A DNA stretch of 24,401 bases from a virus (lineage: Duplodnaviria; Caudoviricetes). Below, one piece after another: positions 9,474 to 24,400 of the stretch. The stretch lies in IMG/VR virus record IMGVR_UViG_3300032218_002933, positions 1 to 24,401 of that record, one strand, 5' to 3'. Numbering within the stretch: position 1 is the stretch's first letter; each line of letters opens with the position of its first letter. The translations under genes and the position numbers were made by a program. The notes under the pieces were generated by a model that saw nothing but the letters and a program-made list of their open reading frames with translations, did not search any database and had not been told where the DNA came from.

Positions 9474-9640
9474 TTTTTTCCAAATCCTTTTGATGTTTGT
9501 GCTTCTAATTCTAAAAGTTCTTCTTCCAAAATTCTAAGTTGTGATTTCATTTCAATCAATTGCTCTGAAGTATATAAATTCTCTTGTTTAATCAATCTAC
9601 GAAGCAATTTCATCATTTTTCTTGCTCTGTCAGTCGGCAT
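9470..9640 (-). CDS. Small conserved coiled-coil hypothetical protein
   Basis: KMMKLLRRLIKQENLY...KGFGKK; ATGA overlap with thyX; start at 9640 is a best guess. Confidence 0.6.
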   Translation of the reverse strand: MPTDRARKMMKLLRRLIKQENLYTSEQLIEMKSQLRILEEELLELEAQTSKGFGKK

Positions 9641-9797
9641 ACTCATCACCATCCTCAAAAATTTCGTCGTAATCTAATTCTTTTGGGTTAATATCATCAT
9701 ATCTATATGATGCTACATCAGAATAAATTTCTGCTTTCAAAGAATCAATTAAAAGTTCAAGATTACGGATAATAAGTTTTACTTTTTCTTGGTCCAT
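9630..9797 (-). CDS. 55-aa acidic conserved cyanophage protein (not in ORF track)
   Basis: Manual translation MDQEKVKLIIRNLELLIDSLKAEIYSDVASYRYDDINPKELDYDEIFEDGDEYAD*; a promoter lies just upstream. Confidence 0.75.
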   Translation of the reverse strand: MDQEKVKLIIRNLELLIDSLKAEIYSDVASYRYDDINPKELDYDEIFEDGDEYAD

Positions 9798-9818
9798 AAG
9801 TTAGAATTCTTTCAATTT

Positions 9819-9847
9819 ATTTTAGCATAAAAAAAGGAGGGGATCAA
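9819..9847 (-). promoter_or_regulatory. Sigma70-type promoter embedded in the upstream terminator
   Basis: TTGATC (9847-9842), 17-nt spacer, TAAAAT (9824-9819), with an extended -10 TG. Confidence 0.55.
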
Positions 9848-9854
9848 CCCCTCC
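9829..9854 (-). terminator. Rho-independent terminator of the riboswitch-peptide transcript
   Basis: Minus strand GGAGGGG-TTGAT-CCCCTCC-TTTTTTT: perfect 7-bp stem followed by U7. Confidence 0.88.
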
Positions 9855-9860
9855 AGAATA

Positions 9861-9959
9861 TCAGCGCATCGCCATCGCTAGTTTTGCTTGGTGTTTACGC
9901 TGTTCTTTTTCTTTTTGCTGTTTGATTAAAATAAGTTGCCAGTTGCTTTTTGTTTTCAT
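9861..9959 (-). CDS. 32-aa basic peptide downstream of the glutamine riboswitch (not in ORF track)
   Basis: MKTKSNWQLILIKQQKEKEQRKHQAKLAMAMR*; strong SD AAAGGAG 7 nt upstream of the ATG; own terminator. Confidence 0.8.
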   Translation of the reverse strand: MKTKSNWQLILIKQQKEKEQRKHQAKLAMAMR

Positions 9960-9989
9960 TAGGGTGCTCCTTTACTTTATGGGTATTGG

Positions 9990-10034
9990 TGCGTTCCTTC
10001 GGTATTCCTACTTCCGCCCATAAGGGTGAACGTT
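9990..10034 (-). ncRNA. Glutamine riboswitch (glnA RNA motif, glutamine-I)
   Basis: Minus strand CGUUCA-CCC UUAU GGG-CGGAAGUA-GG AAUA CC-GAA-GGAACG gives P1 (CGUUC/GAACG), P2, the AGUA/GAA E-loop and P3, as in cyanobacterial glnA RNAs. Confidence 0.85.
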
Positions 10035-10038
10035 CGAT

Positions 10039-10045
10039 TATTTAG
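10039..10045 (-). promoter_or_regulatory. Late promoter CTAAATA directly upstream of the riboswitch
   Basis: Predicted +1 near 10032-10034 coincides with the 5' end of the aptamer. Confidence 0.6.
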
Positions 10046-10056
10046 TCAATCAATTT

Positions 10057-10072
10057 TGTAACATTTGATACA
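10057..10072. promoter_or_regulatory. NtcA binding site
   Basis: TGTA-ACATTTGA-TACA is a perfect GTA-N8-TAC with flanking T/A, next to a nitrogen-sensing riboswitch. Confidence 0.78.
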
Positions 10073-10132
10073 ATTTTAAAAACCTTCGCGTGAGAAAATT
10101 TTGGGGAGATTTTTTTTCACCTATTTTGGAAA

Positions 10133-10489
10133 TCACTTCCGTTTTTTCTTTTCGGGTGCCTTGTATCCCCAAAGTTTTGGACTAATTCTACCATATCCAA
10201 AATCAATTTTCTGAACTACACCAGGTCCAAATTTATCATAGTAAAGATCAAAAATTTTAGATCTGGTTCCCCTACAAAGATCCATATGATTTTCCTCACC
10301 TATTTGATACCAAATTAAATATGCATCATTAGGCCAAGAAGGATCCTTTACTTGATCAAGAGTTGCATTTTCAACCAAAATTTGGCATCCATACCTTGGA
10401 GGAAGACTTTCTTTTTCTTCTTTTGTCCATTCAGTCATTTCTTCCTCCTCCCTAACACTTTCAATAACATCACGAAGTTTACTACTCAT
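10133..10489 (-). CDS. Conserved cyanophage hypothetical protein
   Basis: YGCQILVE..PNDAYLIWY..DLCRG..IFDLYYDKFG..IDFGYGRISPKLWGY; start MSSK at 10489 gives an ATGA overlap with the upstream gene. Confidence 0.75.
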   Translation of the reverse strand: MSSKLRDVIESVREEEEMTEWTKEEKESLPPRYGCQILVENATLDQVKDPSWPNDAYLIWYQIGEENHMDLCRGTRSKIFDLYYDKFGPGVVQKIDFGYGRISPKLWGYKAPEKKKRK

Positions 10490-11094
10490 ACACGATTTCC
10501 CCATTTAATATCTGGATATGCTTCTGCAACAATTTCTTTAGTAATTTTATATTTTGTTTCTAATTTTTTATCTTTAACAAGAATAAGAATTTCTGCTTCA
10601 AGTGGATGAAGACCTTGAAGAACATTAATAAACATAGTTTCTCTACGAAGAGAACTTAGTCCATCATTACCACCACGAATAAAATTATAGAAGCGATTAT
10701 ATTCTTTACGTATTGTGGTTTGTCCCTGATCGTTCATTCCTAAAGAATTAGATCCCATCTCCTCCATTTTATTTACTGCATCAATCACCTTATCACTCAT
10801 AGTACCGCTAAATGAGTTTTGCTCTCCAGTACTAGCATAAGGAACATCTCCTTCTGGAAGAGCAGATACAAGGCTCTCATCAAAGTTCCAAATAAAGATT
10901 GCTTTCAAAGAAGGATCTTCATATTTTTTAAGAAGTTCAACTTTTTTAGAATTAACTCTTTGATTAGAAACCAATTCTAAAACTTCAAACGAAAAAGGAT
11001 TTACAGGAAGATCCTCTAATATTTTCTTAGTCTGTGCAGATGTTGTCCTTGGTTTAGAAGTTCTATTCGTCTTCTTCTGTGTCGTCGTTGTCAT
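10486..11094 (-). CDS. Conserved T4-like phage protein (DUF6433-like)
   Basis: IFIWNFD..SALPEGDVPY, FYNFIRGGN..LRRETMFINVLQGLHPLEAEIL..VKDK; likely start MTTTT at 11094. Confidence 0.75.
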   Translation of the reverse strand: MTTTTQKKTNRTSKPRTTSAQTKKILEDLPVNPFSFEVLELVSNQRVNSKKVELLKKYEDPSLKAIFIWNFDESLVSALPEGDVPYASTGEQNSFSGTMSDKVIDAVNKMEEMGSNSLGMNDQGQTTIRKEYNRFYNFIRGGNDGLSSLRRETMFINVLQGLHPLEAEILILVKDKKLETKYKITKEIVAEAYPDIKWGNRV

Positions 11095-12357: not shown

Positions 12358-13164
12358 TTAAAATCCGTCTTCATGCCAACATTCATTATACCCATATTTT
12401 TGTTCTTCATATGGATAAGAATTTAAATTTTTCTTTGGCCAACTTAAATCAACATTTGTTCTTGGAAAAGATTTAAATAAATTTTTCGTAATTGTATTAC
12501 TTACTACCAAAGATTCTTGCCAATTAGAAGACCCATCAAAGAGATACTTTTCTGGTTCAATAAGAAAAATTTTAATCCTATCATCAAAATTTGAAGCATA
12601 ATTAGCACCAATATATGTTTCAGATCTAATAAAGTATCCATAGTATTTCCAAAGATCTTGTTTTGGAATTCTAACTTTATCAGTAACATTATTAATTTTA
12701 AGTGGTATATCAAAAAGTTTAATTAAATCACTTGTTTTACCCCAGAATAAATGATCTCTGGGATGAAACAAAAGATGTGGATACATTCCAGGAACAAATA
12801 TAAGATGATCTTTCCTATTCTCTATAAAAAAGTTATACATGACCATCATACTATTATAATCGTATAACTGATCAGTACGCATTTTAATAGCATATTCTGT
12901 TTTAACTTTTTTCAATCCATTGAAAGAACTAACTATTTGCAAATTAATATTATCATCACCAAAAGTTATTGGTTTTTGATTACTGACTAATACAATTCCA
13001 CTACTAAAATTTCTTTTGGAATGAACATTATCTTCGTTCCAACAAGAAAGAATGATGTTATTTACAAATGGTAACTTAGAATAATTTTCAATTATCTCTT
13101 CAGTAAATTCTGTATATTGACCCTGCAGAACAATATCTAATTTTTCATAGGAATTGTTCTGCAT
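12358..13164 (-). CDS. wavE: WavE lipopolysaccharide-synthesis family protein
   Basis: DIVLQG, IILSCW, NINLQIVSSFNGLKKVKTEYAIKMRTD, HPRDHLFWGKT.DL, SETYI. Confidence 0.75.
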   Translation of the reverse strand: MQNNSYEKLDIVLQGQYTEFTEEIIENYSKLPFVNNIILSCWNEDNVHSKRNFSSGIVLVSNQKPITFGDDNINLQIVSSFNGLKKVKTEYAIKMRTDQLYDYNSMMVMYNFFIENRKDHLIFVPGMYPHLLFHPRDHLFWGKTSDLIKLFDIPLKINNVTDKVRIPKQDLWKYYGYFIRSETYIGANYASNFDDRIKIFLIEPEKYLFDGSSNWQESLVVSNTITKNLFKSFPRTNVDLSWPKKNLNSYPYEEQKYGYNECWHEDGF

Positions 13165-16100
13165 TAGATTTTTTTTTCAATATGAATGTCAAAGTTTTTT
13201 AAATTTTCAACCACAATATTGTAAATATCTTGAGGTAGATCTGGATCATTTGAAATATCTAAAAAGATATTTTTCGATTCTTCAACCTTACCCCAATACC
13301 ATCCAGACAAAGCTTTCTCAAATAAAAGACCACACTTGCCAGGATATTCAACATTTGTAGAAGTTTTTTCAGAAGAAAAATCACAAATACTCAATCCCAA
13401 AGAAGAATACTTATAACAATCGCTCCATTGATGCCTCTTTTCATGGAACCTAGCAAGTAAGAAATAAGCTTCTGGTCGATTTGGCATTAAGCATAATGCT
13501 TGTTGCAGTAAAGAAATTGCTGTACCATCTCTAGTTCCTTGCTTATCATAACAATGATGGCATTTGATTAATGACTCATAGATCATATTTTCATCTTCAA
13601 ACCTTTCAGAAGATCTTAAGAAGTATGATAATGCTGGTGCAGTATGTCCTTCTTTTTCATACCACAATCCAACATTAAAATTATTTTGAGGATTTTCTGG
13701 ATCTAATGAATACTCTGTTAAAATAGTTTCCAATTCAGTTTTAACTCTAGGAATATCAATTTTGTTTTGAGATTCTTCAATAACAAGTTGAGTAGGAATA
13801 AAATCAGAAACAATTTCTGAAAGTTTTAACTTATCATTATTTTTCCACCAATCAATTACATATTGATAAGTTTCTTGATGATATTCTTTATTTTCATTTT
13901 CAAGTTCAGTATGTCCATAAAAAGTAGAAGTCAAATTTTGATCTTCTACAAAAAGATTGATAGCATAAACTTTACCCATCCCATAAAATAAAACATTTTC
14001 TGGCATAGGATAAAAATTTGTTCCTGGAATTTCTAACCTATAAGAATCACCATCACAATATCTTTCGATAACTTTTCTGGCATAATCTCTAGTTAAAATA
14101 TAAGCAGTAACAGACCAATCATACATCGATCTCTCTCTGAGTTTAATCTCATCATAATTGGTTTTAATACAACAAAGTTGAACACACTCAGCATCTTCTG
14201 GCAACAATTCAATAAAATCATTCCAAGTAAAATTCCAATACTGAACTGTTTCTAAACTTAAATCATCTTCACAAAAGAACCCATAATCTTCATCAGTTTC
14301 TTCATACCATTTTTTAATCATCTTAATGTGAGAAACTACACAACCAATAGTTCCATCATCAAGAATATGAAGTTGTTCTCCATAAACTTTATCATCACAA
14401 TATTTAAATCTCCTAGAGAGAACTTCTCTGAACTTTTCAACTCCGCTGTAAAAAAATTGAGATCTTAAAGACTCTCTTCTTTCAACACTTTCATCCAAAC
14501 TTATATAATTTACACTAGGAAAATCTAAAAGTTTAATTCTATTTGTAAGAATTTTATTTGCACTTAAGTTAAAACCCATTTCTTTCCACCAATTAATTAC
14601 ACTATTATAGGACATATGGTGATCATAATCAAGATCACTTGTGTTATTTTCTATCTGATAAGAAGATTTAAAAGAAGTATCTTCAACAAAAAGAGGGAAT
14701 GTATAAACTCTATTAGTTAAACTAAAGAGAACTGTTTCGACAACAGGAACCAAAGCCCAATCTGGTCTGTGTTGCATATCGTGACATTTAGAATCTAGAT
14801 AAAAATTATCATCAAAATGATAAGTATCAATCAGTTTTTGTGCATAATCTCTTTTGATCAAATATGCACATGCAGACCAATCTCCCCAACATCTATTTTT
14901 AAATTCAATATTAAATTCAACTCCTTGAATAACACATAACTGAATACAATCCCACTTTGAAGGAAGAGTATCCACAAATTCTTCCCAAGTAAAATTCCAG
15001 TATTGAACCGTTTCTAAACTTAAATCATCTTCACAAAAGAAAGCATATTCATCATTTGTATTATTCAACCACTCTTTAATTGCTTTTAAATGTGACGTAA
15101 CTGGTCCTCTACTACCTTGACTTAATCGATAATCACCATTATCTTCTAGATAATTACTAATTATTATATGATCGTCATCACTATATTTTTTAAATATATG
15201 AGGTGTTATATTTTCTATATGAAATATTTTAAATTTTTCATATAAATTTTTTCTTCTTTCTTCAGAATGATCAACACTTATAAAATGAACAGGAGGAAAA
15301 TTTTTAAGGCGATCTGTTATAGTATCATCAACTATTTTTGCAAGATAGTAATTGTTAGATTTTTTATGTATCATCCAATTAGTATGAGTATCATCATAGT
15401 AATTTTTAATCTCACCAGATTTTTGAGCGTTTCTTTCATTATGCTTTAATGTTAAAACATAATCAACTTGCCATTGCAATTCTTCACCAGAATATTTTGT
15501 AGATAATAGATTTACTAAATCATCTCTTAAATTCGGTTCTTCACTAAAAGATTTAAAATTCTCAAAACGTTTTGTATCTTGATGAGGAATGTGGAAAATA
15601 TGATAATCATAATCCAATTTTTTATGTTCAAGACCAAGTAATTCTAAACGTTTATAAATTTCATCATCTTCATAAGAATAATGCTCTGATAAATTTTCAT
15701 TATACCCATTAACCTTTAAAAGATTTTCTTTGGAGATATACAAAAGACCTGTTAAAAATTTATAATAAGAACTATAAGTATTATGATAATCGGAAAATTC
15801 ATCCATGGTCATTTTTGACCTATCTACCAAATAAGATCCAGTAGCTTCATCATAAAATTCTGGACTTTTATAAGATGGTTTACCACTAACAAAAGAATTA
15901 TCGTCTATTTTATACTTATCAAAAAAACAATAATAAGGACTTAATACATAATCACAGTCAACTTTTATAATATAATCTCCTTTAGTTTGTGATATAGCAA
16001 GATTTAATGGTTGAGGTTGGTTAAAATATTTTTGGTCTTCTACTCTGATAATTTTTATTCTACTATCCAAACAAGTCAAGTTTTCTAAACTTTCATCAGA

Positions 16101-16214
16101 ACTCCAATCAACTATAATAAACTCCTCAATTTGTTTATAATTTAACCATGAATTTAAAGAAACTTTCAAGGCTTCATTACGATTTTTGCAAGCACATATT
16201 AAAGAAATACTCAT
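13164..16214 (-). CDS. Multidomain glycosyltransferase: GT2/GT7C + GT25-like + GT25-like + TPR
   Basis: N-terminal CACKNR, IIVDWSS, KVDCD, GYNE..YEDDE. Two copies of ISxD...RR...SH.K.IK.W...FFCEDDLSLETVQYWNFTW...WS..AY...RDYA. C-terminal TPR-like helices (ALSYFLRS, PNRPEAYFLLARF). Confidence 0.8.
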   Translation of the reverse strand: MSISLICACKNRNEALKVSLNSWLNYKQIEEFIIVDWSSDESLENLTCLDSRIKIIRVEDQKYFNQPQPLNLAISQTKGDYIIKVDCDYVLSPYYCFFDKYKIDDNSFVSGKPSYKSPEFYDEATGSYLVDRSKMTMDEFSDYHNTYSSYYKFLTGLLYISKENLLKVNGYNENLSEHYSYEDDEIYKRLELLGLEHKKLDYDYHIFHIPHQDTKRFENFKSFSEEPNLRDDLVNLLSTKYSGEELQWQVDYVLTLKHNERNAQKSGEIKNYYDDTHTNWMIHKKSNNYYLAKIVDDTITDRLKNFPPVHFISVDHSEERRKNLYEKFKIFHIENITPHIFKKYSDDDHIIISNYLEDNGDYRLSQGSRGPVTSHLKAIKEWLNNTNDEYAFFCEDDLSLETVQYWNFTWEEFVDTLPSKWDCIQLCVIQGVEFNIEFKNRCWGDWSACAYLIKRDYAQKLIDTYHFDDNFYLDSKCHDMQHRPDWALVPVVETVLFSLTNRVYTFPLFVEDTSFKSSYQIENNTSDLDYDHHMSYNSVINWWKEMGFNLSANKILTNRIKLLDFPSVNYISLDESVERRESLRSQFFYSGVEKFREVLSRRFKYCDDKVYGEQLHILDDGTIGCVVSHIKMIKKWYEETDEDYGFFCEDDLSLETVQYWNFTWNDFIELLPEDAECVQLCCIKTNYDEIKLRERSMYDWSVTAYILTRDYARKVIERYCDGDSYRLEIPGTNFYPMPENVLFYGMGKVYAINLFVEDQNLTSTFYGHTELENENKEYHQETYQYVIDWWKNNDKLKLSEIVSDFIPTQLVIEESQNKIDIPRVKTELETILTEYSLDPENPQNNFNVGLWYEKEGHTAPALSYFLRSSERFEDENMIYESLIKCHHCYDKQGTRDGTAISLLQQALCLMPNRPEAYFLLARFHEKRHQWSDCYKYSSLGLSICDFSSEKTSTNVEYPGKCGLLFEKALSGWYWGKVEESKNIFLDISNDPDLPQDIYNIVVENLKNFDIHIEKKI
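14223..15041. repeat. 57-nt direct repeat (14223-14279 and 14985-15041) in the duplicated GT25-like domains
   Basis: 54/57 identical, all 3 differences synonymous; offset 762 nt (254 codons). Confidence 0.9.
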
Positions 16215-17053
16215 TTTATAAATTCTCCATTTTCATAACAGTTTGGTGAAGTTTTTGCATTAGGATTTTCACATAAGGCATGTTCATTTTCATATTTTAT
16301 ATAAAGATCAGTATGTCCAGGGACCAATAATGTTCCACCTTCTGGTCCAACCCACCATCTTGTAGAATCTCCATAAGTTCTTACTGTAAATTGAACTCTT
16401 TCAAATTGTTTTATTTTTTTAGAATATCCAATTCTTCCAAAATATTTGATGTAACATCTTTCAATATTAAGAAGTTCAAAATTATGTCCAAAATCTTCAA
16501 TTATATCATTACTATTAACATAATTATTAACTATTCCTAAAACACTATCAATATCCGAAGATGGGAAAATGTGATGCCTATCTGTTATTCCACCATAACC
16601 TTCTCCAAAAGGAATCCAAAAATGAGAATTATCTAAAATAGGATGTTGCCTATAATAAAAGTAATCCGATCTTGTAATTATTATACGATCATATTCTAAA
16701 AGTACATTCTTTTTATTTTTTAATATCCAATCTCTAATAGCAAAAGTAATTGCACTAGAACCTATAGAATGATATAATCCAGAAAATCCATTATTTCCGA
16801 CCATAGAAAAAACTTTTTTCCAAATACCATCTTCTCCAAAATTTTCAACATAATAATCTGCCCACTCAGTATACTCTGGCAATTCCCAAACATACTTTGA
16901 TCTAGTATATAAAGATTCTGTTTTATTCTCTTTATATCCAAAACAAATTGCAAGATCTGCATTATATGGAACTAATAAATTCTCATACATGCTATGCCAA
17001 GTTTTTTCTCCTCCCCTAGCATTACCAATCAATATAACTAATGTTTTTTCCAT
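16211..17053 (-). CDS. Putative glycosyltransferase-like protein (R-x-D family)
   Basis: LVILIGNARG, YDRIIITRSD, IPFGEGYGGITDRH, ERC; same motif pattern as 20391-21092; lies in the glycan cluster. Confidence 0.55.
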   Translation of the reverse strand: MEKTLVILIGNARGGEKTWHSMYENLLVPYNADLAICFGYKENKTESLYTRSKYVWELPEYTEWADYYVENFGEDGIWKKVFSMVGNNGFSGLYHSIGSSAITFAIRDWILKNKKNVLLEYDRIIITRSDYFYYRQHPILDNSHFWIPFGEGYGGITDRHHIFPSSDIDSVLGIVNNYVNSNDIIEDFGHNFELLNIERCYIKYFGRIGYSKKIKQFERVQFTVRTYGDSTRWWVGPEGGTLLVPGHTDLYIKYENEHALCENPNAKTSPNCYENGEFIK

Positions 17054-17505
17054 AAAAAATCTTTATAATAAATTACTTTGTCTGTACAAATACCGTATAC
17101 TTGATTTATATATTCATCAGAACAATATGCATTTTCTGGCATAACTAAAACAGAATTTGAATAGGGTTTTTTACCTGGATAAACCCATCCTATGCCTTTA
17201 CTGGTAATTGTATAGGAATCAGTTTCGTGCCAAAAGTAATTAAATTCTACCACAGAATTTGACATTTTTTCAAGTGCTTCTAAATTCTTGCAATGAATCC
17301 AAAGCACATCTTTATATTTCACCAACCAACTCATAGGTACATAATACTGTGGTTCATCATGCCCCAGATAAAAATTATGATCTTCATGTCTTATATCTAC
17401 TTCAACATCAAATCCTTCGGCAATTGCTTCTTCAATATACTCAATACTATTTTCTTTGATTGGATTTGGTCCCGTTAGATTTCCTCGATGTGCAATTAAT
17501 CTCAT
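17038..17505 (-). CDS. Small GDPD/PLC-like phosphodiesterase
   Basis: IAHRGN, EN, GFDVEVD, LGHD, WIHCKN, GICTD. Confidence 0.85.
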   Translation of the reverse strand: MRLIAHRGNLTGPNPIKENSIEYIEEAIAEGFDVEVDIRHEDHNFYLGHDEPQYYVPMSWLVKYKDVLWIHCKNLEALEKMSNSVVEFNYFWHETDSYTITSKGIGWVYPGKKPYSNSVLVMPENAYCSDEYINQVYGICTDKVIYYKDFLWKKH

Positions 17506-18872
17506 CCTTTATAATGCTCCAAGAAATAATTTAAATCTTCTGGAGTTCCAATTCCCCACATTCGCTCAATTTCTTTCACTCTGATTTTTTTATCATCAGC
17601 AATTGCTTCATTAAATACTGGGCAAACATAGAACTCACCATTTGTTCTAATGTTCTTTTCAATCATTTGTTCTGCATACTTGACGTAATCAGATCCCTTC
17701 TTCCAGAAGTAAATTCCAACGGTTGCATTATTGCTAATTGGTTTTTTCTCCGCAACTTCAGAAACAAAACCATCAGAACCAATTTTTGCATAAGACCATT
17801 TTGGATGGGTTGCTTCAAAAGTGACTATACCACCATCAACTCCATCGGCGTTAAAAGCATACAAGCACTCATTACTATTCCACTCCACAAATTGGTCAGA
17901 ATTTGCCATCACAAGAGGGGCATCATTATCGATAAACTCTTTGGCAAGAAGAGTTGTGCAAGCAGCACCTTCAGTTAATCCATCAACTTGAACGATATTA
18001 CAATTAGGTGCAATAAGGTTTAAAAGATACTGTAGACTATACTTTTCATAATGTTCTTTTTGAACAATAAAAGTATAATTTGCTTCTATGTTTAGGTTTT
18101 CAACTACAACCTGAATCATCGGTTTACCATCAACCTCAATTAATGGTTTAGGAAATGTGTACCCAGCATTCGCAAAGCGACTACCAGCACCTGCCATAGG
18201 AATAAGAACATTCATTTTATCAGACTTCCAAGGTACAATCGTAAGTTTTTTAGATGCAAATATTTCAAATAGTTTATTAATTTTATCTTGATTTAAATCA
18301 AACCTATTTTCAATTGCAATAAGAGTTGCTCCACTATCTAAGGCACCTTGCCTTCCAATATGACTGTCTTCAAAGATTACAGTATCTTTTGGAAGAGCAT
18401 TACATACAGTCATACATTTCCAATACATTTCAGGAAATGGTTTGTTTCTTACAACATCTTCATTACTTACATAATAATCAACAAACTCCAAAAGACCCAA
18501 CTTAAGAAGAACAAGTTTAACAGTATTCCTAATACTGTTAGAAGCAACTGCTACTTGGTATCCTCTTTGCTTTAGTTGCTGGAAATAATACATCAATTCA
18601 TAATCATGTTCCAATTCGGAAAAAATTTCAAGAGTTGCTTTCTGTTTATCTTCCCAAATTTGTTGATGTTTTTCTACAGAAAGACCTTTCTTTTCTGTAA
18701 GCATAGAAAGTTTTCTTGAAGTAGGAAGTCCATCATAAAGACTTAAATGTTCTTGAATATTAATTACATATTCATGCCCAACATTTCTTAATGCTGCATT
18801 TAATGCCTCATAGTGCATATCTCGACTATCAATTAATACACCATCGAGATCAAATATTACTAATTTATTCAC
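17502..18872 (-). CDS. Bifunctional HAD phosphatase + sugar-phosphate nucleotidyltransferase
   Basis: N-domain FDLDGVL, ASNS, KPFPE, FEDSHIG. C-domain LIPMAGAGSRF..PKPLI, TEGAACT, NSDQ, AEKKPIS, NGEFYV, GIGTPEDL. Confidence 0.9.
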   Translation of the reverse strand: MNKLVIFDLDGVLIDSRDMHYEALNAALRNVGHEYVINIQEHLSLYDGLPTSRKLSMLTEKKGLSVEKHQQIWEDKQKATLEIFSELEHDYELMYYFQQLKQRGYQVAVASNSIRNTVKLVLLKLGLLEFVDYYVSNEDVVRNKPFPEMYWKCMTVCNALPKDTVIFEDSHIGRQGALDSGATLIAIENRFDLNQDKINKLFEIFASKKLTIVPWKSDKMNVLIPMAGAGSRFANAGYTFPKPLIEVDGKPMIQVVVENLNIEANYTFIVQKEHYEKYSLQYLLNLIAPNCNIVQVDGLTEGAACTTLLAKEFIDNDAPLVMANSDQFVEWNSNECLYAFNADGVDGGIVTFEATHPKWSYAKIGSDGFVSEVAEKKPISNNATVGIYFWKKGSDYVKYAEQMIEKNIRTNGEFYVCPVFNEAIADDKKIRVKEIERMWGIGTPEDLNYFLEHYKG

Positions 18873-19474
18873 TTTCTTTTAAACTCAATATTTACTTCGT
18901 TTTGTTGAATATCGTTAGAATGAACATCAGTAATAATAAAATTATTTTCTTCAAGAAATTTTGTAACTGAATCTACACTATTATCTACAGATTTATATAA
19001 AGGATTTTGATTTGCAGCTTCAACAACACCCTCTTGAAGAATAGAAATATATTTTCCAAATGATTTTAATACTGTTAAATCATTTCCCTGAGTATCACAA
19101 TGCATATAATCAATTCTTTCAATATTATTATTTTTGATAAAAGTATCCATTCTTCTTACTAAGACTTTTATTTTCTCAGTAACTTTAAAATCTGTTCTTC
19201 CTGGCCATGTTTTATCAAGATCATCTTCAAAATCATGTATAGAACTACATCCCCAATCAGATTGCCCAGCAATATTAAATGTAGTTTCACCATCAAAATC
19301 TGATATAGCGTATGGAATTACTATGTAATTTTCCTTTTGTTTAGGGTAAAGGCATTCTTTCAATAATCTTGGAGTAGGTTCAAATGCATAAACTATGGTA
19401 GAAGGATCTTGTGAATAATGATGACAACTATTTCCATCATTCGCACCAACATCAAATACTATTCTTTTAAACAT
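18869..19474 (-). CDS. FkbM-family SAM-dependent methyltransferase
   Basis: VFDVGANDG, YAFEP, AISD, IDYMHCDTQGND. Confidence 0.85.
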   Translation of the reverse strand: MFKRIVFDVGANDGNSCHHYSQDPSTIVYAFEPTPRLLKECLYPKQKENYIVIPYAISDFDGETTFNIAGQSDWGCSSIHDFEDDLDKTWPGRTDFKVTEKIKVLVRRMDTFIKNNNIERIDYMHCDTQGNDLTVLKSFGKYISILQEGVVEAANQNPLYKSVDNSVDSVTKFLEENNFIITDVHSNDIQQNEVNIEFKRK

Positions 19475-19503
19475 GTATGTAAAATTAAATCATAATTTAT
19501 ATA

Positions 19504-20394
19504 TTATAGCAGATTTTGAACTAATTTTTTCGTGGTCAAATTTTCTTTAGTATAATTTATTAAATACTCAATAAATTGATCATAGTAAAAATGCACTTTT
19601 TCAGTTAAAGAATATTTGTTTATTTCCAGTATAATAGATTTTGGAAAATTGACCATGATATGAGGAGGACATTCTTCCAAATTTTCAAAAGCAGGTATAC
19701 ATCTATTTGCTAAAATTTCATAATGCCTCATACAATCCCAACCCATTTTTTTGCATGTGTATCCATAATAAGATTTAGCATACTCTTGATAATATAATTT
19801 TTCATCAGTAAAAGTATATAATCTTGGATCACAACCAGCGTTAGAAATAGGTCTATTTATTTTTGGAGAAAAAATATATTCTTTTTTTATTTTTCCAAAA
19901 GTATCAATTTGAGACTCTGGAATTGCAAAAGATATTGGATTTCCATAATATAAATCAGTCAGTTCTCTTTTCCATATTATACCATACTCATTTAAACCAT
20001 AATCATGTCCAAAGTTTTTAATGTCATCAGATCCATCTAAAAAATAAACTTTATTTTTGGGATAGAACTCTTTAACACAATCCAAATAATCTAAACATTG
20101 CCTATTCGGAAACCAATCGTGCGTATAGATGCATCCGTAAATAATCAAATCATAAAATTTTGACTTTATTTTGTCGATTATATCTTCAGAAGATTCTACT
20201 CTAGGTTGATGATTTAATTTTGCAAATATAGTAAATCCATTTCCATATAATTGCTGTGGATTTTCATAAGAAGAATGCATATAATTTGGATGAGATGTTT
20301 CATAAACTTCCAATCCACTATCAACCAATCCATGATAAACACAATCTGCAAGATATTCTGGATTGTTAAAATTATATACAAATAATATTTTCAT
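19504..20394 (-). CDS. Putative GT-B-type glycosyltransferase
   Basis: YLAD..YHGL, YG.GFT, FLDGSD, WKREL, PISFAIPE, KKMGWDCMRHYEILANRCIP; start MKILF at 20394 gives an ATGA overlap. Confidence 0.6.
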   Translation of the reverse strand: MKILFVYNFNNPEYLADCVYHGLVDSGLEVYETSHPNYMHSSYENPQQLYGNGFTIFAKLNHQPRVESSEDIIDKIKSKFYDLIIYGCIYTHDWFPNRQCLDYLDCVKEFYPKNKVYFLDGSDDIKNFGHDYGLNEYGIIWKRELTDLYYGNPISFAIPESQIDTFGKIKKEYIFSPKINRPISNAGCDPRLYTFTDEKLYYQEYAKSYYGYTCKKMGWDCMRHYEILANRCIPAFENLEECPPHIMVNFPKSIILEINKYSLTEKVHFYYDQFIEYLINYTKENLTTKKLVQNLL

Positions 20395-21092
20395 CGTTGA
20401 TCCCAAGAAAGTCTTGATGATGATATTAAAATTTTGAAATCAAATCTAGAAATTTGAACATTCCTAATTTTTAAATATTCTCCCAACATGCTTTCTGCAT
20501 GATATGGAACATGCTTAATCATAGAAAAAGAATTATATAAATCACAATAGATATCCATACTTTCAGAAGACCCTATTGCAAATTGATCATTAAGTCCCCC
20601 ACACCAATCATTACCAGAAGGGATGGATAAATCTCCCAAAATAGTTTTTAAATCAAGATTTTTATTTTCAAAATCACTATCAAAACGAATTCTTATGACT
20701 TTATCAAACTTCATCTTATTTGAAAGTTCATATTTTCTTTTCAAATAATTACTTTGATAAATTGAATAAAACATACTTATGATTCCCAAATCTGTTCTAG
20801 GTGGGGAATCATGAAGTTTAAAACTAAAAAAATCATACATTTTTTGGAAATGTATTTTTTTAGTTTTATAGTTTTCCACTAATAAAGTTTCAAAATTAAA
20901 CTTTTCAAGAAGTTCAAAATTAGACCCCCTATTAACATCTAAATTGGAATTTACATAATTTTTTTCATTTGCTAAATTTATCCACGTATGACCAAAAACT
21001 TTTATATTATCATTTGGTAATATCAATTTTAAACTTTCTAATCCATTATCAGGAGTTCTTGATGTTCCAGAAAAACAAACAGCTACCTTCAT
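20391..21092 (-). CDS. Putative glycosyltransferase-like protein (R-x-D family)
   Basis: MKVAVCFSG..R, HTW, SMFYSI, FDKVIRIRFD, GLNDQFAIG, HAE. Confidence 0.6.
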   Translation of the reverse strand: MKVAVCFSGTSRTPDNGLESLKLILPNDNIKVFGHTWINLANEKNYVNSNLDVNRGSNFELLEKFNFETLLVENYKTKKIHFQKMYDFFSFKLHDSPPRTDLGIISMFYSIYQSNYLKRKYELSNKMKFDKVIRIRFDSDFENKNLDLKTILGDLSIPSGNDWCGGLNDQFAIGSSESMDIYCDLYNSFSMIKHVPYHAESMLGEYLKIRNVQISRFDFKILISSSRLSWDQR

Positions 21093-22081
21093 GCTTTAAA
21101 AATATAATCCTGAACAAAAGACTTAGAAACTTTTAATAAGTATGCAGCATTATCTTGGAATCCAAATGTAATTAAATAATCATCACCATACTCACACATA
21201 CCAACAGCAAATTCTATCTCTCCATTTAAGAAAGAAAATCTTTCCGAAACTTTTACAATATTCCAATCATCATCCCATACGATAAATCTATGACGATAAG
21301 TTCCATCTTTTCTACCAATTGGACTTTGGAATAAAAATGTTTCATGATTTAAACAAAATCTATATTCACCTAGTTTAAGAACTTGAGATCCACCACGAAG
21401 ATCAATACATCCCAAATCTTTCCAGTCAGTAACAGTTACTCTCTCTGTAGTGTTTGTTTCAATATCATACTTAACAACTTCAGTCCCATTAGTCCACTTA
21501 ACAAAGTGAAATGGAAGATCTAAAATTGGCATCCAATTCTTTTCACAATAAGAAGTTTCATCACCAAGATCAATTCCAGGAACAGGAATACGATATTGTT
21601 TTAATTCTTTAACTCCATCATCAGTTATTTCTATTTCAGATAACTCCATCCTACCCTGCCCATTATGAGTAGTATCTCTTCTTACACCACAAACATAAAG
21701 TTTTCCATCCCATCGAACGATACGGCAATCTTCAAGACCTACAAATTCCCAAAGTTCTTTATCTGGAAATTGTGAAGTATCAATATGATGATATTTTTCA
21801 ATCGTTAAATCATCATTCATTTTGCACATGATATTCCATGTGCGAAGACGTACATCATTTTCTGGATGAATGTAAACTAAAGGACCCCAATGGTGTTCAA
21901 ATTTTTTCTTTTCAGAATGATAAAGCGTATAGTTAATATTTCTTAAATTAACAAGAATTTTACCATTATCATTATAAATGGAAGGATTGGTTAAAGACGG
22001 TCCTTTCAAAGATGTTGAAGGAATAATAAGGGGATGAATAGATCCACCATTTTCAATAGCAAGTTTAACAAAGTTAGTCAT
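21089..22081 (-). CDS. Five-bladed beta-propeller glycoside hydrolase/phosphorylase-like protein (GH130/GH43/GT108-like)
   Basis: NPSI, GLEDCRI, EKNWMP, LRGGSQ, YRHRF, IEFAVG, ITFGFQD. Confidence 0.7.
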   Translation of the reverse strand: MTNFVKLAIENGGSIHPLIIPSTSLKGPSLTNPSIYNDNGKILVNLRNINYTLYHSEKKKFEHHWGPLVYIHPENDVRLRTWNIMCKMNDDLTIEKYHHIDTSQFPDKELWEFVGLEDCRIVRWDGKLYVCGVRRDTTHNGQGRMELSEIEITDDGVKELKQYRIPVPGIDLGDETSYCEKNWMPILDLPFHFVKWTNGTEVVKYDIETNTTERVTVTDWKDLGCIDLRGGSQVLKLGEYRFCLNHETFLFQSPIGRKDGTYRHRFIVWDDDWNIVKVSERFSFLNGEIEFAVGMCEYGDDYLITFGFQDNAAYLLKVSKSFVQDYIFKA

Positions 22082-22117
22082 GAAAGTTTATTCTAAAAGA
22101 TTATTTTTAAAGGAAGT

Positions 22118-22342
22118 TTATTCAGGAACTGATGCTTCAGGGACTACAGGAACTGATTCTTCAGAACCTGGTGGTTCATAAACTGGAGTTGTGATTGTAA
22201 TTTCAATTTGGTGATCTGGGCCATATTCTTTCAAAAGATCTGTAGCTTGCTCCATAGTATAACCAGTATCATTTGCAGGATCTGCAGTCAGGTAATAAAC
22301 ATGCATCACAGGCATGGTTAAAGTTTCAGTTTTCGTTGCCAT
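22118..22342 (-). CDS. 74-aa acidic hypothetical protein
   Basis: Start MATKT at 22342 avoids overlap with the upstream gene; a TAAATA late-promoter-like motif lies about 30 nt upstream. Confidence 0.55.
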   Translation of the reverse strand: MATKTETLTMPVMHVYYLTADPANDTGYTMEQATDLLKEYGPDHQIEITITTPVYEPPGSEESVPVVPEASVPE

Positions 22343-22361
22343 TTGAATTTTACTTAAACTC

Positions 22362-23078
22362 TTACTGTATATATTTAAAATGTTTTGGGTTACTTTTGTT
22401 GAAGCACAAATAGTTGTCAAGATTATCGACTGGATATTTTACATAACCAAGATCTAAAAGTATTTGAGATGCTGATTTACTAATAGGAATATACGAATCA
22501 TTCATGTCTTCTGTTGTCGGAACTCTTTCCAGTTCCAAAAATAAAACTGGTTTATACTTTTCAATAAGTCTAATAGCACCATCAAGAATATAAGGTTCAA
22601 AACCTTCTGTATCTATTTTAACATAATCTACATTCTGAAAATCATAATCATCCAATCTTGATATTTTAATTTCTTCTCCACCCTTTCCAACTTGTAAAGA
22701 TCCAAGATTGAAAGGTAAAGAATGATTGATTGGAATACTCATGTTTGGTCCATGAGAGCAATATTTACTCATAAAAGATTTACATCTTTTATTTCCCAAA
22801 GCATTATTGAAAGTTTTTATATTTGTTATATTGTTATCTTCTATGTTTTTACATAGAATATCATACATAACCTTCTGCGGTTCAAATGCAAATATACTTG
22901 CACTCGAATTTATTTTACTGTAAATTATACTATGAGATCCACAATGGGCACCAATATCAATAATAACTTTAGATTCTTTTACAATATCGTAAAGACATCT
23001 CTCAATAACTTCTTCTTCATGAATTTCATTTCTAAACAAAGCACCCGAAAAATAAAGATCATTCTTCAGATAACTCAT
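22362..23078 (-). CDS. FkbM-family SAM-dependent methyltransferase
   Basis: IIDIGAHCG, FAFEPQ, NNALG, N.GSL, VDYVKIDTEGFE, KPVLFLE. Confidence 0.9.
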   Translation of the reverse strand: MSYLKNDLYFSGALFRNEIHEEEVIERCLYDIVKESKVIIDIGAHCGSHSIIYSKINSSASIFAFEPQKVMYDILCKNIEDNNITNIKTFNNALGNKRCKSFMSKYCSHGPNMSIPINHSLPFNLGSLQVGKGGEEIKISRLDDYDFQNVDYVKIDTEGFEPYILDGAIRLIEKYKPVLFLELERVPTTEDMNDSYIPISKSASQILLDLGYVKYPVDNLDNYLCFNKSNPKHFKYIQ

Positions 23079-23119
23079 TATACCATACTTAGTGGTATTT
23101 GTTATTATCTCATAAGCGT

Positions 23120-24400
23120 TTACTTTTTTTTTAGAAAATTATAATCACTCAAATCCTTTCTCCAAAGTTCTTTGGAGAAGTTAGACCATTCCTTTACTCT
23201 TGTTTCCCAACTGTAATACTTATTAATGACTTCAACCTGAATAGTATTGTCAAACTTACCTTCTCGATATTCTGTAATTGTTTGTTTAAGTTCTCTTGCA
23301 AAACGTTCAACATGTTTTTGACGATCAGGAATATATCCATAAAGACGAGCAAATCCTAAAGAAGTTTCGGGAAGTGCGGCAAGATTACTTGAAACTACAG
23401 AACATCCAGCAGCAAGTGCTTCAATCAAACAAATACAAGATGTTTCCTGGAAATAAGAAGGATATGCAAAGATATGAGTCTTCATTAGTTGCTCACGAAT
23501 CTTAGAGTTATTTGTTCTTGTATGACGAACAACTCTGCTGTCAGCATTTGCAAGTGCTAAACAATAACGAAGAAACTGTTCTTCTTCTGGAACAACATGA
23601 GAATATTCATAACTCTGCAATCCTTGAGTGTATTGTTTCTTTCTTTCATCAGGATCTAATTCATGAAAAACATGAAGATCAAAGTCTTCTTCAGGAATAA
23701 GTTTAATCGCATCAAGAAGAACATCCAGTCCACGAATTGGATTGGGATGGAACATCAGTTGAAGTTTTCCTTCTGGTTTCTTGTGCGGTTCAAATGGATG
23801 AATGGCATTCTTAAGAACAAAACATTTTTCCATAGGAAGATTAAACTTCTCACCAAATCTTTCGTACTGCCAATCAGAAACAAAAACATACGCCTTGAAA
23901 TGTTTTTGGAACTGCTTATCCATCAACTGCTCAAGACCAACCTCATTATGATGAGGATGCAACCAAACAATATTAGAGTTATCTGGTGCAATCACATTAT
24001 CACCAGGAATTACACACCAATGCCAATCAGCAAGATCTGGTGCAGCAGGAAGAACTAAATCTTGCCAGGCACGACCCATAATCTCTGTGCCACCAGTTCC
24101 ATCAGGATTTAATGATGCCTCAAGAAGTGGTGGCATATTGTTGTGAAGAAACTCTGGTTTTGTTACAACTTCTGGTTCTGGCATGTTATAGTATTCTTTT
24201 GGGAATGTTTTAATTATAGCATCTTTTAAATCTTCTGGAAAGTATGAAAAATCATATTTGATAAAATGTTTATTTTCATGCTTACGATCTAGAAGATCAG
24301 TTCCAGTTTTAATTGCTTCAAGAATGTGCTGTTCGTTTTTAATTTCATCTTTATTGAACTCTTGATGAGCATAAGATTCTATTTTTGTTTTGATTTGTTC
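23120..24400 (-). CDS. GT17-like + GT4 (GT-B) fusion glycosyltransferase; 5' end lies outside the window
   Basis: The frame stays open upstream of the Met at 24184: EQIKTKIESYAHQEFNKDEIK...DLLDR...YFPEDL..., typical of a GT17 C-terminus. GT4 part: GGTE, FVSDWQ, RGLDVLL, YPSYFQETSCICLIEALAAG, ALPET. Confidence 0.8.
   Translation of the reverse strand, partial: EQIKTKIESYAHQEFNKDEIKNEQHILEAIKTGTDLLDRKHENKHFIKYDFSYFPEDLKDAIIKTFPKEYYNMPEPEVVTKPEFLHNNMPPLLEASLNPDGTGGTEIMGRAWQDLVLPAAPDLADWHWCVIPGDNVIAPDNSNIVWLHPHHNEVGLEQLMDKQFQKHFKAYVFVSDWQYERFGEKFNLPMEKCFVLKNAIHPFEPHKKPEGKLQLMFHPNPIRGLDVLLDAIKLIPEEDFDLHVFHELDPDERKKQYTQGLQSYEYSHVVPEEEQFLRYCLALANADSRVVRHTRTNNSKIREQLMKTHIFAYPSYFQETSCICLIEALAAGCSVVSSNLAALPETSLGFARLYGYIPDRQKHVERFARELKQTITEYREGKFDNTIQVEVINKYYSWETRVKEWSNFSKELWRKDLSDYNFLKKK

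Follow-up and report, generated by a model that had tools for sequence, protein, structure and literature searches.

A phage cassette with an NtcA-type box, a late-promoter motif and a glutamine aptamer ahead of a small basic peptide related to the DUF4278 N-terminal helix

Layout and phage setting of the cassette

The window analysed here is a virus record of 24,401 nt (24.4 kb; IMG/VR IMGVR_UViG_3300032218_002933) with T4-like gene content, including genes for a single-strand DNA binding protein and a thymidylate synthase. It contains a cassette of about 245 bases, every part of which is read on the minus strand, with the following features.

10057..10072, no strand assigned: TGTA-N8-TACA palindrome of NtcA type with its centre at about -31.5 relative to the predicted +1; predicted site of repression
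10044..10049, minus strand: TTGACT, likely the relic -35 of a sigma70 promoter
10039..10045, minus strand: CTAAATA, T4-like late-promoter motif; TAAATA begins 13 nt past the NtcA box, predicted +1 near 10033
9988..10034, minus strand: single canonical glutamine-I (glnA) aptamer; RF01739, 55.6 bits, E 5.9e-10
9961..9998, minus strand: predicted expression platform, the aptamer 3' strand and next bases against the Shine-Dalgarno (SD) sequence and the pyrimidines before the start codon
9967..9973, minus strand: SD sequence AAAGGAG; in two-gene relatives this leader precedes the YRG ORF
9861..9959, minus strand: ORF of a 32-aa basic peptide, homologue of the DUF4278 N-terminal helix and, via its family, of phrog_545
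9829..9854, minus strand: intrinsic terminator, 7-bp stem plus 7 T

The initial annotation had described a self-contained unit of box, late motif, aptamer, SD sequence, ORF and terminator, and each part was recovered where it had been placed. The palindrome is perfect, CTAAATA and AAAGGAG were found as well, and the terminator, called strong, has its stem at 9836-9854 with 6 GC pairs among 7 bp (-14.8 kcal/mol).

Relatives of the gene at 10133-10504, upstream of the cassette, occur in 109 records of cultured phages, which are labelled Synechococcus (92), Prochlorococcus (8), marine virus (7), and cyanophage (2). The best-ranked cultured relative by this gene is the reservoir phage S-SRM01, and we infer that the source phage is a freshwater-type picocyanobacterial myovirus. 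No tRNA genes were detected in the window by a tRNA scan. A long run of cell-surface or glycosylation-type genes occupies 12358-24184 on the minus strand, one of which encodes a protein of 1016 aa that contains two glucosyltransferase stretches (phrog_2835).

In run X1, possibly the source sample, 9600-10500 is spanned by two contigs that overlap and show no sequence difference inside the cassette. The cassette is therefore not an assembly artefact. No RNA library was listed among the sequencing runs with this sequence. Contigs of related phages from runs X5 and X9 skip it entirely, jumping from 9834 to 10095 and from 9851 to 10131, and one of these empty sites carries 33 other bases where the cassette would stand. 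The cassette is therefore a discrete and dispensable module.

NtcA-type box, late-promoter motif and glutamine aptamer

Both promoter motifs are short, and neither is above chance in the window alone. GTA-N8-TAC occurs five times where 3.0 are expected (a count reached in 20 of 100 shuffles), TGTA-N8-TACA twice against 0.5 (10 of 100), and CTAAATA seven times against 8.3. Their standing comes from their conserved position in relatives. The other four GTA-N8-TAC matches of the window all lie inside ORFs, and five of the six other CTAAATA copies are situated 15-43 nt ahead of a same-strand start codon.

Among 80 loci picked by the neighbouring gene only, 32 distinct cassettes were present, and in 24 of them a box upstream of the aptamer was evident at once. 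Of the remaining eight, six carry two aptamer cores and show the box ahead of the outer one; no such box was seen in L311 and L318. A scan of viral contigs for the aptamer only gave 119 stretches (approximately 380 estimated). At 99 distinct aptamer loci with enough upstream DNA, the window included, GTA-N8-TAC is found at -38/-39 from the CGTTCA of the aptamer in 11 cases, and just one other match lies within 60 nt of an aptamer. The combination of box and aptamer was likewise detected in 119 viral stretches (approximately 320 estimated), and the unit is not rare. Counts in relatives overstate the evidence, here and below, because related sequences are not independent.

The spacing between box and promoter was examined in 128 distinct box-plus-spacer sequences of short, long, and intermediate type. 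Of 95 distinct short-type cassettes, 67 have a TA[ATG]ATA that begins 12-14 nt past the box (mean of 4.2 and maximum of 11 in shuffles), as have 12 of 21 long-type cassettes (shuffled 0.34) and 2 of 10 intermediate ones. Since this spacing is fixed while the distance from box to aptamer varies from 38 to 62 nt in relatives (39 nt in the window), the box is tied to the late-type motif. The predicted +1 presumably lies near 10033, for which we assume the spacing of T4 late promoters. The initial annotation had put the box about 32 nt upstream of this +1 and called the position repressor-like; the computed distance of 31.5 nt bears this out, being close to the NtcA repressor positions reported for gifA (-30.5; PMC6316151, PMC8092223) and pirA (-33.5; PMC8092223), with activation at approximately -41.5 (PMC6316151, PMC8092223). 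CTAAATA of the cassette is one position away from the published cyanophage late-promoter consensus NATAAATA (PMC2984593). In case of S-CAM22, the box is placed right after TATAAATA, so that it overlies the start; this second position, too, is compatible with repression but not with activation.

The long-type relatives carry a full sigma70 promoter composed of a TTG hexamer, a spacer of 17-18 nt and TATAAT, of which the -35 overlaps the late motif. A TTG-type hexamer is located 8-9 nt past the box in 18 of 21 long-type cassettes, and the box lies near -51 to -55 from the sigma70 start. For 18 of 20 cases (e.g., L242, L249, L256, and L262), TATAAT is situated inside the loop of a hairpin of 5-6 bp, which would belong to the leader of the late transcript. 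A host sigma70 promoter was not found in the cassette of the window: the sigma70 scan gave no site, and a -10 hexamer is absent both 22-23 nt past the box and 17 nt past TTGACT, which is itself kept. TTGACT is likely the relic -35 of a sigma70 promoter whose -10 survives in the long-type relatives.

The aptamer, proposed in the initial annotation, passed the Rfam check as a full-length match (model positions 1-53, gathering score 35), which is also the sole Rfam match in the window. It shows the three-way junction of P1, P2, and P3 with conserved junction bases, and the alignment marks no broken pair. Located in the 5' leader of the ORF, it is predicted by folding and sequence statistics to be able to cover the ribosome-binding site when ligand-free. 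RNA folding of the ligand-free form pairs the aptamer 3' strand with the SD sequence and the pyrimidines ahead of the start codon. Forcing the aptamer raises the unpaired probability of the SD sequence in the window from 0.35 to 0.56. The SD sequence was opened in 38 of 49 NtcA-type leaders and closed in three, compared to only 8 of 76 other viral leaders that opened, although forcing a structure next to an SD sequence has an inherent tendency to open it. The spacer between SD sequence and start codon contains CC or CTTC, which can pair with the 3' junction of the aptamer, in 79 of 87 leaders compared to 28 of 247 control ORFs. Compensatory changes in the SD-covering helix were not detected in 14 sequences; 81% of cells in this helix pair compared to 27-47% for slid versions, yet 250 of 500 shuffles score as high. 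By folding, the cassette RNA is predicted to be a translational ON switch for glutamine, as reported for the glutamine riboswitch of gifB, for which release of the ribosome-binding site was proposed as mechanism (PMC6212724).

Several further arrangements of glutamine aptamers were observed. DSL-LC02, S-SRM01, and S-CAM22 carry two interlocked glutamine-aptamer cores, one of which encloses a complete ORF (L120:3045-3260, L320:2675-2890, and L588:430-670). A variant single aptamer with a CGTTGA start and a changed 3' strand, missed by the standard pattern, occurs at L253:2727-2870 and in L258, L264, L269, and L314, with the box 44-45 nt upstream and a possible second palindrome ahead of the box. 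Most viral glnA aptamers are without an NtcA box (the non-NtcA loci of L003-L119); they are often arranged in tandem or located after TAAATA, and the peptides encoded behind them are other small basic ones or YRG peptides. Many tandem glnA aptamer copies were also seen in SAR86 and alphaproteobacterial genomes.

The peptide and its relatives in phages and hosts

The 32-aa peptide was confirmed as originally read and is strongly basic (pI 10.7, nine K+R and two D+E residues). Its 16 DNA versions vary at 21 third, nine first, and six second codon positions, six of seven X-run variants in the ORF fall on third positions among the variants listed (40 of 129), and the 90% cluster of the peptide has 67 members. 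Judged from these patterns, the ORF looks like a real gene. The peptide is likely helical; A25 is the sole invariant residue of its family and K18 is nearly so. Pfam and NCBIfam searches with the peptide gave no match, and the absence of a YRG motif, as annotated, agrees with the Pfam result for PF14105 (DUF4278). A PDB sequence search returned one chance match (E 5.9), the ESM Atlas no usable match, and blastn of the peptide gene against cultured phages chance matches only.

A search of 1.84 billion proteins with a profile of 40 sequences retrieved 69 cluster representatives, almost all of them 27-60 aa long. One representative led to proteins of 59-60 aa named Prochlorococcaceae or Synechococcus, one of which is named DUF4278. 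The first 28 residues of the host DUF4278 proteins match the peptide family with an hhalign probability of 96.2% (E 2.3e-9), and the matching part is a helix of 27-28 residues outside the YRG part. The initial annotation had set the peptide apart from the DUF4278 proteins usually found behind such riboswitches. This was correct as regards the YRG motif; yet the peptide is homologous to their N-terminal helix and is found as the second ORF of a phage gene pair.

In DSL-LC02 and most relatives, the leader serves a YRG (DUF4278-like) ORF first and the peptide homologue second, the two being translationally coupled. Among 164 helix matches (not deduplicated), 102 are located after a YRG ORF, 32 are solo, 13 form the rear part of a fusion with YRG, and the other 17 could not be classified. 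A set of 98 distinct candidates defined by the regulatory end, with 800 nt downstream, was reduced to 96 cassettes, since L071 and L138 are chance pattern matches. It comprises 76 cassettes with helix and upstream YRG, 19 with helix but without YRG, and one with YRG but without helix (L156). Hence the helix is retained in 95 and YRG in 77 of the 96 cassettes. A second case of YRG without helix, L141, is located outside this set owing to the 800-nt filter. The solo peptides fall into four sequence types, two of which are much nearer to YRG-coupled peptides than to the other solo types, which suggests repeated loss of YRG; the direction is taken from these similarities and not from a tree. The peptide type of the window itself also occurs as second ORF in L169 and L171. 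Judged by these sequence comparisons, the cassette of the window represents a stripped-down form that points to the helix as the payload.

The DSL-LC02 homologue matches positions 1-24 of phrog_545. Of the peptide family, 26 of 40 members match this group at E <= 0.1; the window peptide itself scores below the model and is linked through its family. By sequence, phrog_545 corresponds to the fused helix and YRG form, which also occurs among marine myoviruses and siphoviruses in culture (29 records at E <= 10, most of the matches being weak). Many cassettes carry a hydrophobic peptide of 27-29 aa after the helix ORF (L008, L018, L240, and L266), some a further ORF of about 50 aa that holds one YRG. 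Furthermore, many relatives (L260, L266, L280, and L291) have a 108-aa ORF between the anchor gene and the cassette, which resembles an S-adenosylmethionine decarboxylase gene.

On the host side, 301 genomes from the family around G144, which we infer to be picocyanobacteria, were searched for the helix, and 90 contain it (E <= 0.01). The glutamine-II aptamer RF01704 is present at all host loci scanned, namely 6 of 6 and 18 of 18 out of 28 further loci. The 30 best host loci comprise 21 with helix and YRG and nine without YRG, and 20 of them have an NtcA box 34-37 nt ahead of the aptamer. G144 possesses three glutamine-II aptamers, which serve a helix and YRG gene, a helix-only gene, and a YRG-only gene, respectively. 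In case of host YRG-only genes of 33 aa (L508-L510), the box lies directly against the aptamer, similar to gifB, and for helix and YRG genes it is situated 34-38 nt upstream. A host unit of NtcA box, glutamine-II aptamer, and DUF4278 gene has been described, its function being unproven (PMC6212724; PMC6316151, section 2.7). This unit, and not gifB/IF17 of Synechocystis, which the initial annotation had used as its model, is the closest host counterpart. Neither a consistent nitrogen gene nor any hint to a target was seen among the 63 ORFs scanned next to the host genes.

Relations to known effectors were sought by profile comparison. The annotated lack of similarity to IF7 was borne out, with an hhalign probability of 0.12% against 117 IF17 C-termini and 86 of 100 shuffles as high (0.1-0.4% over the hhalign comparisons). 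An IF7/IF17 homologue was rejected as well on the grounds of NF052599 (IF7A), which matches two of two IF17 controls and none of four phage peptides. Three arginines are conserved in the 117 IF17 C-termini, a pattern that is missing from the peptide family. A PirA homologue, suggested by eye, was discarded since a 31-sequence profile gave at most 1.5%, with 4-8 of 40 shuffles as high; NF050139 (PirA) matched none of four host helix proteins, and a search for short PirA relatives with the C-terminus of one fusion yielded no candidate. IF7 was not found in any of the 301 genomes around G144. In a phylum sample of 201 genomes, the helix occurs in four small genomes (one match with stops) and is absent from all 66 PirA genomes. 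Considering that the 301 genomes lack IF7 and that PirA and helix do not overlap, the helix would therefore fill a vacant slot. Many of the 66 PirA genomes show a second, weaker PirA match in a longer frame.

YRG repeats elsewhere are fused to IF7-type and PirA-type effectors, and such fusions agree with an accessory role of YRG and with the helix being a third effector. In filamentous cyanobacteria, DUF4278-PirA fusions are preceded by both an NtcA box and a glnA aptamer (L329:423-854 on the minus strand, L334:1007-1432, L348:1008-1430, and L342), and three of the fusions match NF050139. By sequence these suggest a riboswitch-controlled PirA; N-terminally extended PirA forms have been called elusive (PMC8092223).

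Proposed function and relation to known systems

We propose that the cassette is a two-input switch for plentiful nitrogen which makes a basic peptide late in infection, and that this peptide most likely acts on host nitrogen assimilation. Taken as a whole, including the view of the cassette as a pared-down phage counterpart of the picocyanobacterial nitrogen-regulated gene unit, we hold this explanation with modest confidence. The regulatory logic, i.e., release of NtcA combined with activation by glutamine, is the part of which we are fairly sure on the basis of the sequence features. When nitrogen is short, host NtcA loaded with 2-oxoglutarate would block the phage late promoter from about -31, as judged from the conserved spacing. 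Under ample nitrogen, low 2-oxoglutarate would release NtcA, and the late polymerase would transcribe approximately 200 nt beginning at the aptamer. Without glutamine, the aptamer 3' strand would cover the ribosome-binding site, and glutamine binding would free the SD sequence; the aptamer class is established by the Rfam match, the switching is predicted. Being homologous to the helix, the peptide may represent the effector half of the host DUF4278 protein, with the YRG half as a dispensable accessory, and the phage-made copy would stand in for that of the host. Its partner might be an acidic nitrogen enzyme or signal protein, which is a guess. The peptide would build up late in infection of nitrogen-replete cells and likely damp host nitrogen uptake or assimilation.

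As regards the target, a host nitrogen protein is mildly favoured. Glutamine synthetase is the lead guess, though a tentative one that rests on analogy, since the peptide has neither IF7/IF17 homology nor the three-arginine pattern; PII or another nitrogen protein ranks just behind as an equally cautious guess, and the remaining share falls to a non-nitrogen or phage target. A complex prediction with two glutamine synthetase chains (G435 locus) and the peptide scored 0.00, the mark to reach being 0.32, which is informative neither way. For marine picocyanobacteria, IF-type control is reported to have been ruled out by earlier studies (PMC6316151), and PirA is reported to be absent from them as well (PMC8092223). 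It is tempting, albeit rather speculative, to see in the helix a third effector family under nitrogen control, small in size and unrelated to IF7 and PirA, namely the missing post-translational brake on picocyanobacterial glutamine synthetase or PII, placed on an NtcA-gated phage late promoter and present in the window in its minimal working form.

The regulation could be as proposed and the peptide could still act outside nitrogen assimilation, on RNA, the ribosome, photosynthetic turnover, or lysis timing, so that nutrition tunes the late programme. We regard this as possible but unlikely. A peptide without homology to IF7, IF17, or PirA would fit such a role, its K/Q-rich sequence could bind nucleic acid, a third, hydrophobic peptide comes next in many relatives, and control of lysis by a glutamine riboswitch was speculated for another phage (PMC9004378). 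A host metabolic role is favoured instead because the same peptide with the same double control is encoded by a scattered chromosomal host gene; moreover, gifA and pirA, two characterised cyanobacterial genes with this promoter geometry, encode nitrogen-protein binders (PMC6316151, PMC8092223). Considering that pirA shares this geometry, that DUF4278-PirA fusions occur behind glnA aptamers, and that PirA and helix were never found together in the 201 sampled genomes, the peptide might be a PirA-like PII binder or a diverged PirA and not a glutamine synthetase inhibitor, but the profile scores against 31 PirA sequences and the failure of NF050139 to match the host helix proteins render this improbable.

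As regards the promoter, NtcA might activate under starvation, or a host sigma factor might read it, in which case the two sensors would be opposed and expression would come as a pulse on nitrogen resupply. NtcA-driven phage expression was proposed by Sullivan 2010 (PMC3037559), the long-type relatives with a full sigma70 promoter and a box near -51 to -55 would allow it, and TATAAT replaces the late motif in 9 of 74 short-type cassettes. The window has no -10 hexamer and gave an empty sigma70 scan, and box spacing is fixed to the late motif and not to TATAAT, so that we give this reading little credence. Least probable, and by a wide measure doubtful, is that the RNA itself is the product (a small RNA or glutamine buffer) or that helix-only cassettes are in decay and depend on the lost YRG partner. 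Yfr6, a host transcript of this family, was originally reported as non-coding RNA despite a frame of 33 aa, and relatives without the cassette at the same site exist; against this stand the third-position bias, the intact SD sequence, the 67 cluster members, and the occurrence of helix-only forms as four phage sequence types and as host genes.

Picocyanobacteria lack IF7, IF17, and PirA, and their post-translational control of glutamine synthetase is described as an open question (PMC6316151, section 2.7). Attention has so far been on DUF4278 (PMC6316151). Given that helix-only forms exist as four phage sequence types and also in hosts, the helix would be a better candidate for study than the YRG repeat. 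Should the promoter model be correct, a phage late promoter is under the control of a regulator of host metabolism, and infection would respond directly to the 2-oxoglutarate and glutamine levels of the host.

Compared to known systems, the cassette is most similar to the host DUF4278 units termed IF17-like (RF01704; PMC6212724, PMC6316151, PMC2864571), which likewise combine an NtcA box at the repressor position, a glutamine aptamer, an SD sequence, and a small basic protein. It differs in being phage-encoded, in using a glutamine-I instead of a glutamine-II aptamer and a late motif instead of a host -10, and in the absence of YRG; the distance from box to aptamer is 34-38 nt in the host unit compared to 39 nt. 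The helix is not mentioned as a separable module in the accessible text of these three reports. With gifB/IF17, the cassette shares the aptamer class RF01739 and the predicted ON mechanism, and with gifA/IF7 the NtcA position (-30.5) and a small basic product, whereas the peptide is unlike IF7/IF17 (NF052599) in having no homology to the glutamine synthetase-binding region, and its likely hosts are without IF7. PirA (NF050139; PMC8092223), an NtcA-repressed PII binder, resembles the cassette in promoter geometry (-33.5), in size, and in its occasional DUF4278 fusion behind a glnA aptamer, but gives no significant profile match to the peptide. Finally, phrog_545 is the fused helix and YRG form, and the window peptide consists of the helix only.

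Glutamine riboswitches and NtcA boxes of phages, as well as the host unit, have each been published before. glnA RNAs are known from cyanophages, including S-CREM1 (PMC9964418; see also PMC9602691), a glnA riboswitch from phage Melnitz (PMC9004378), and predicted NtcA sites, read as activating, from 16 cyanomyoviruses (Sullivan 2010, PMC3037559). The ORFs of Downstream-peptide RNAs are reported to range from 17 to 100 aa (PMC2864571). In a literature in which subscription papers and supplements were thinly covered, we found neither a publication that connects the box with late promoter, aptamer, and helix in phages nor one that views the helix as a module in its own right. Since the parts themselves are known, the surprise is limited. 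To these known parts the present analysis adds the minimal form, the count of helix retention, the helix-only host genes, and the fixed spacing between NtcA box and late motif.
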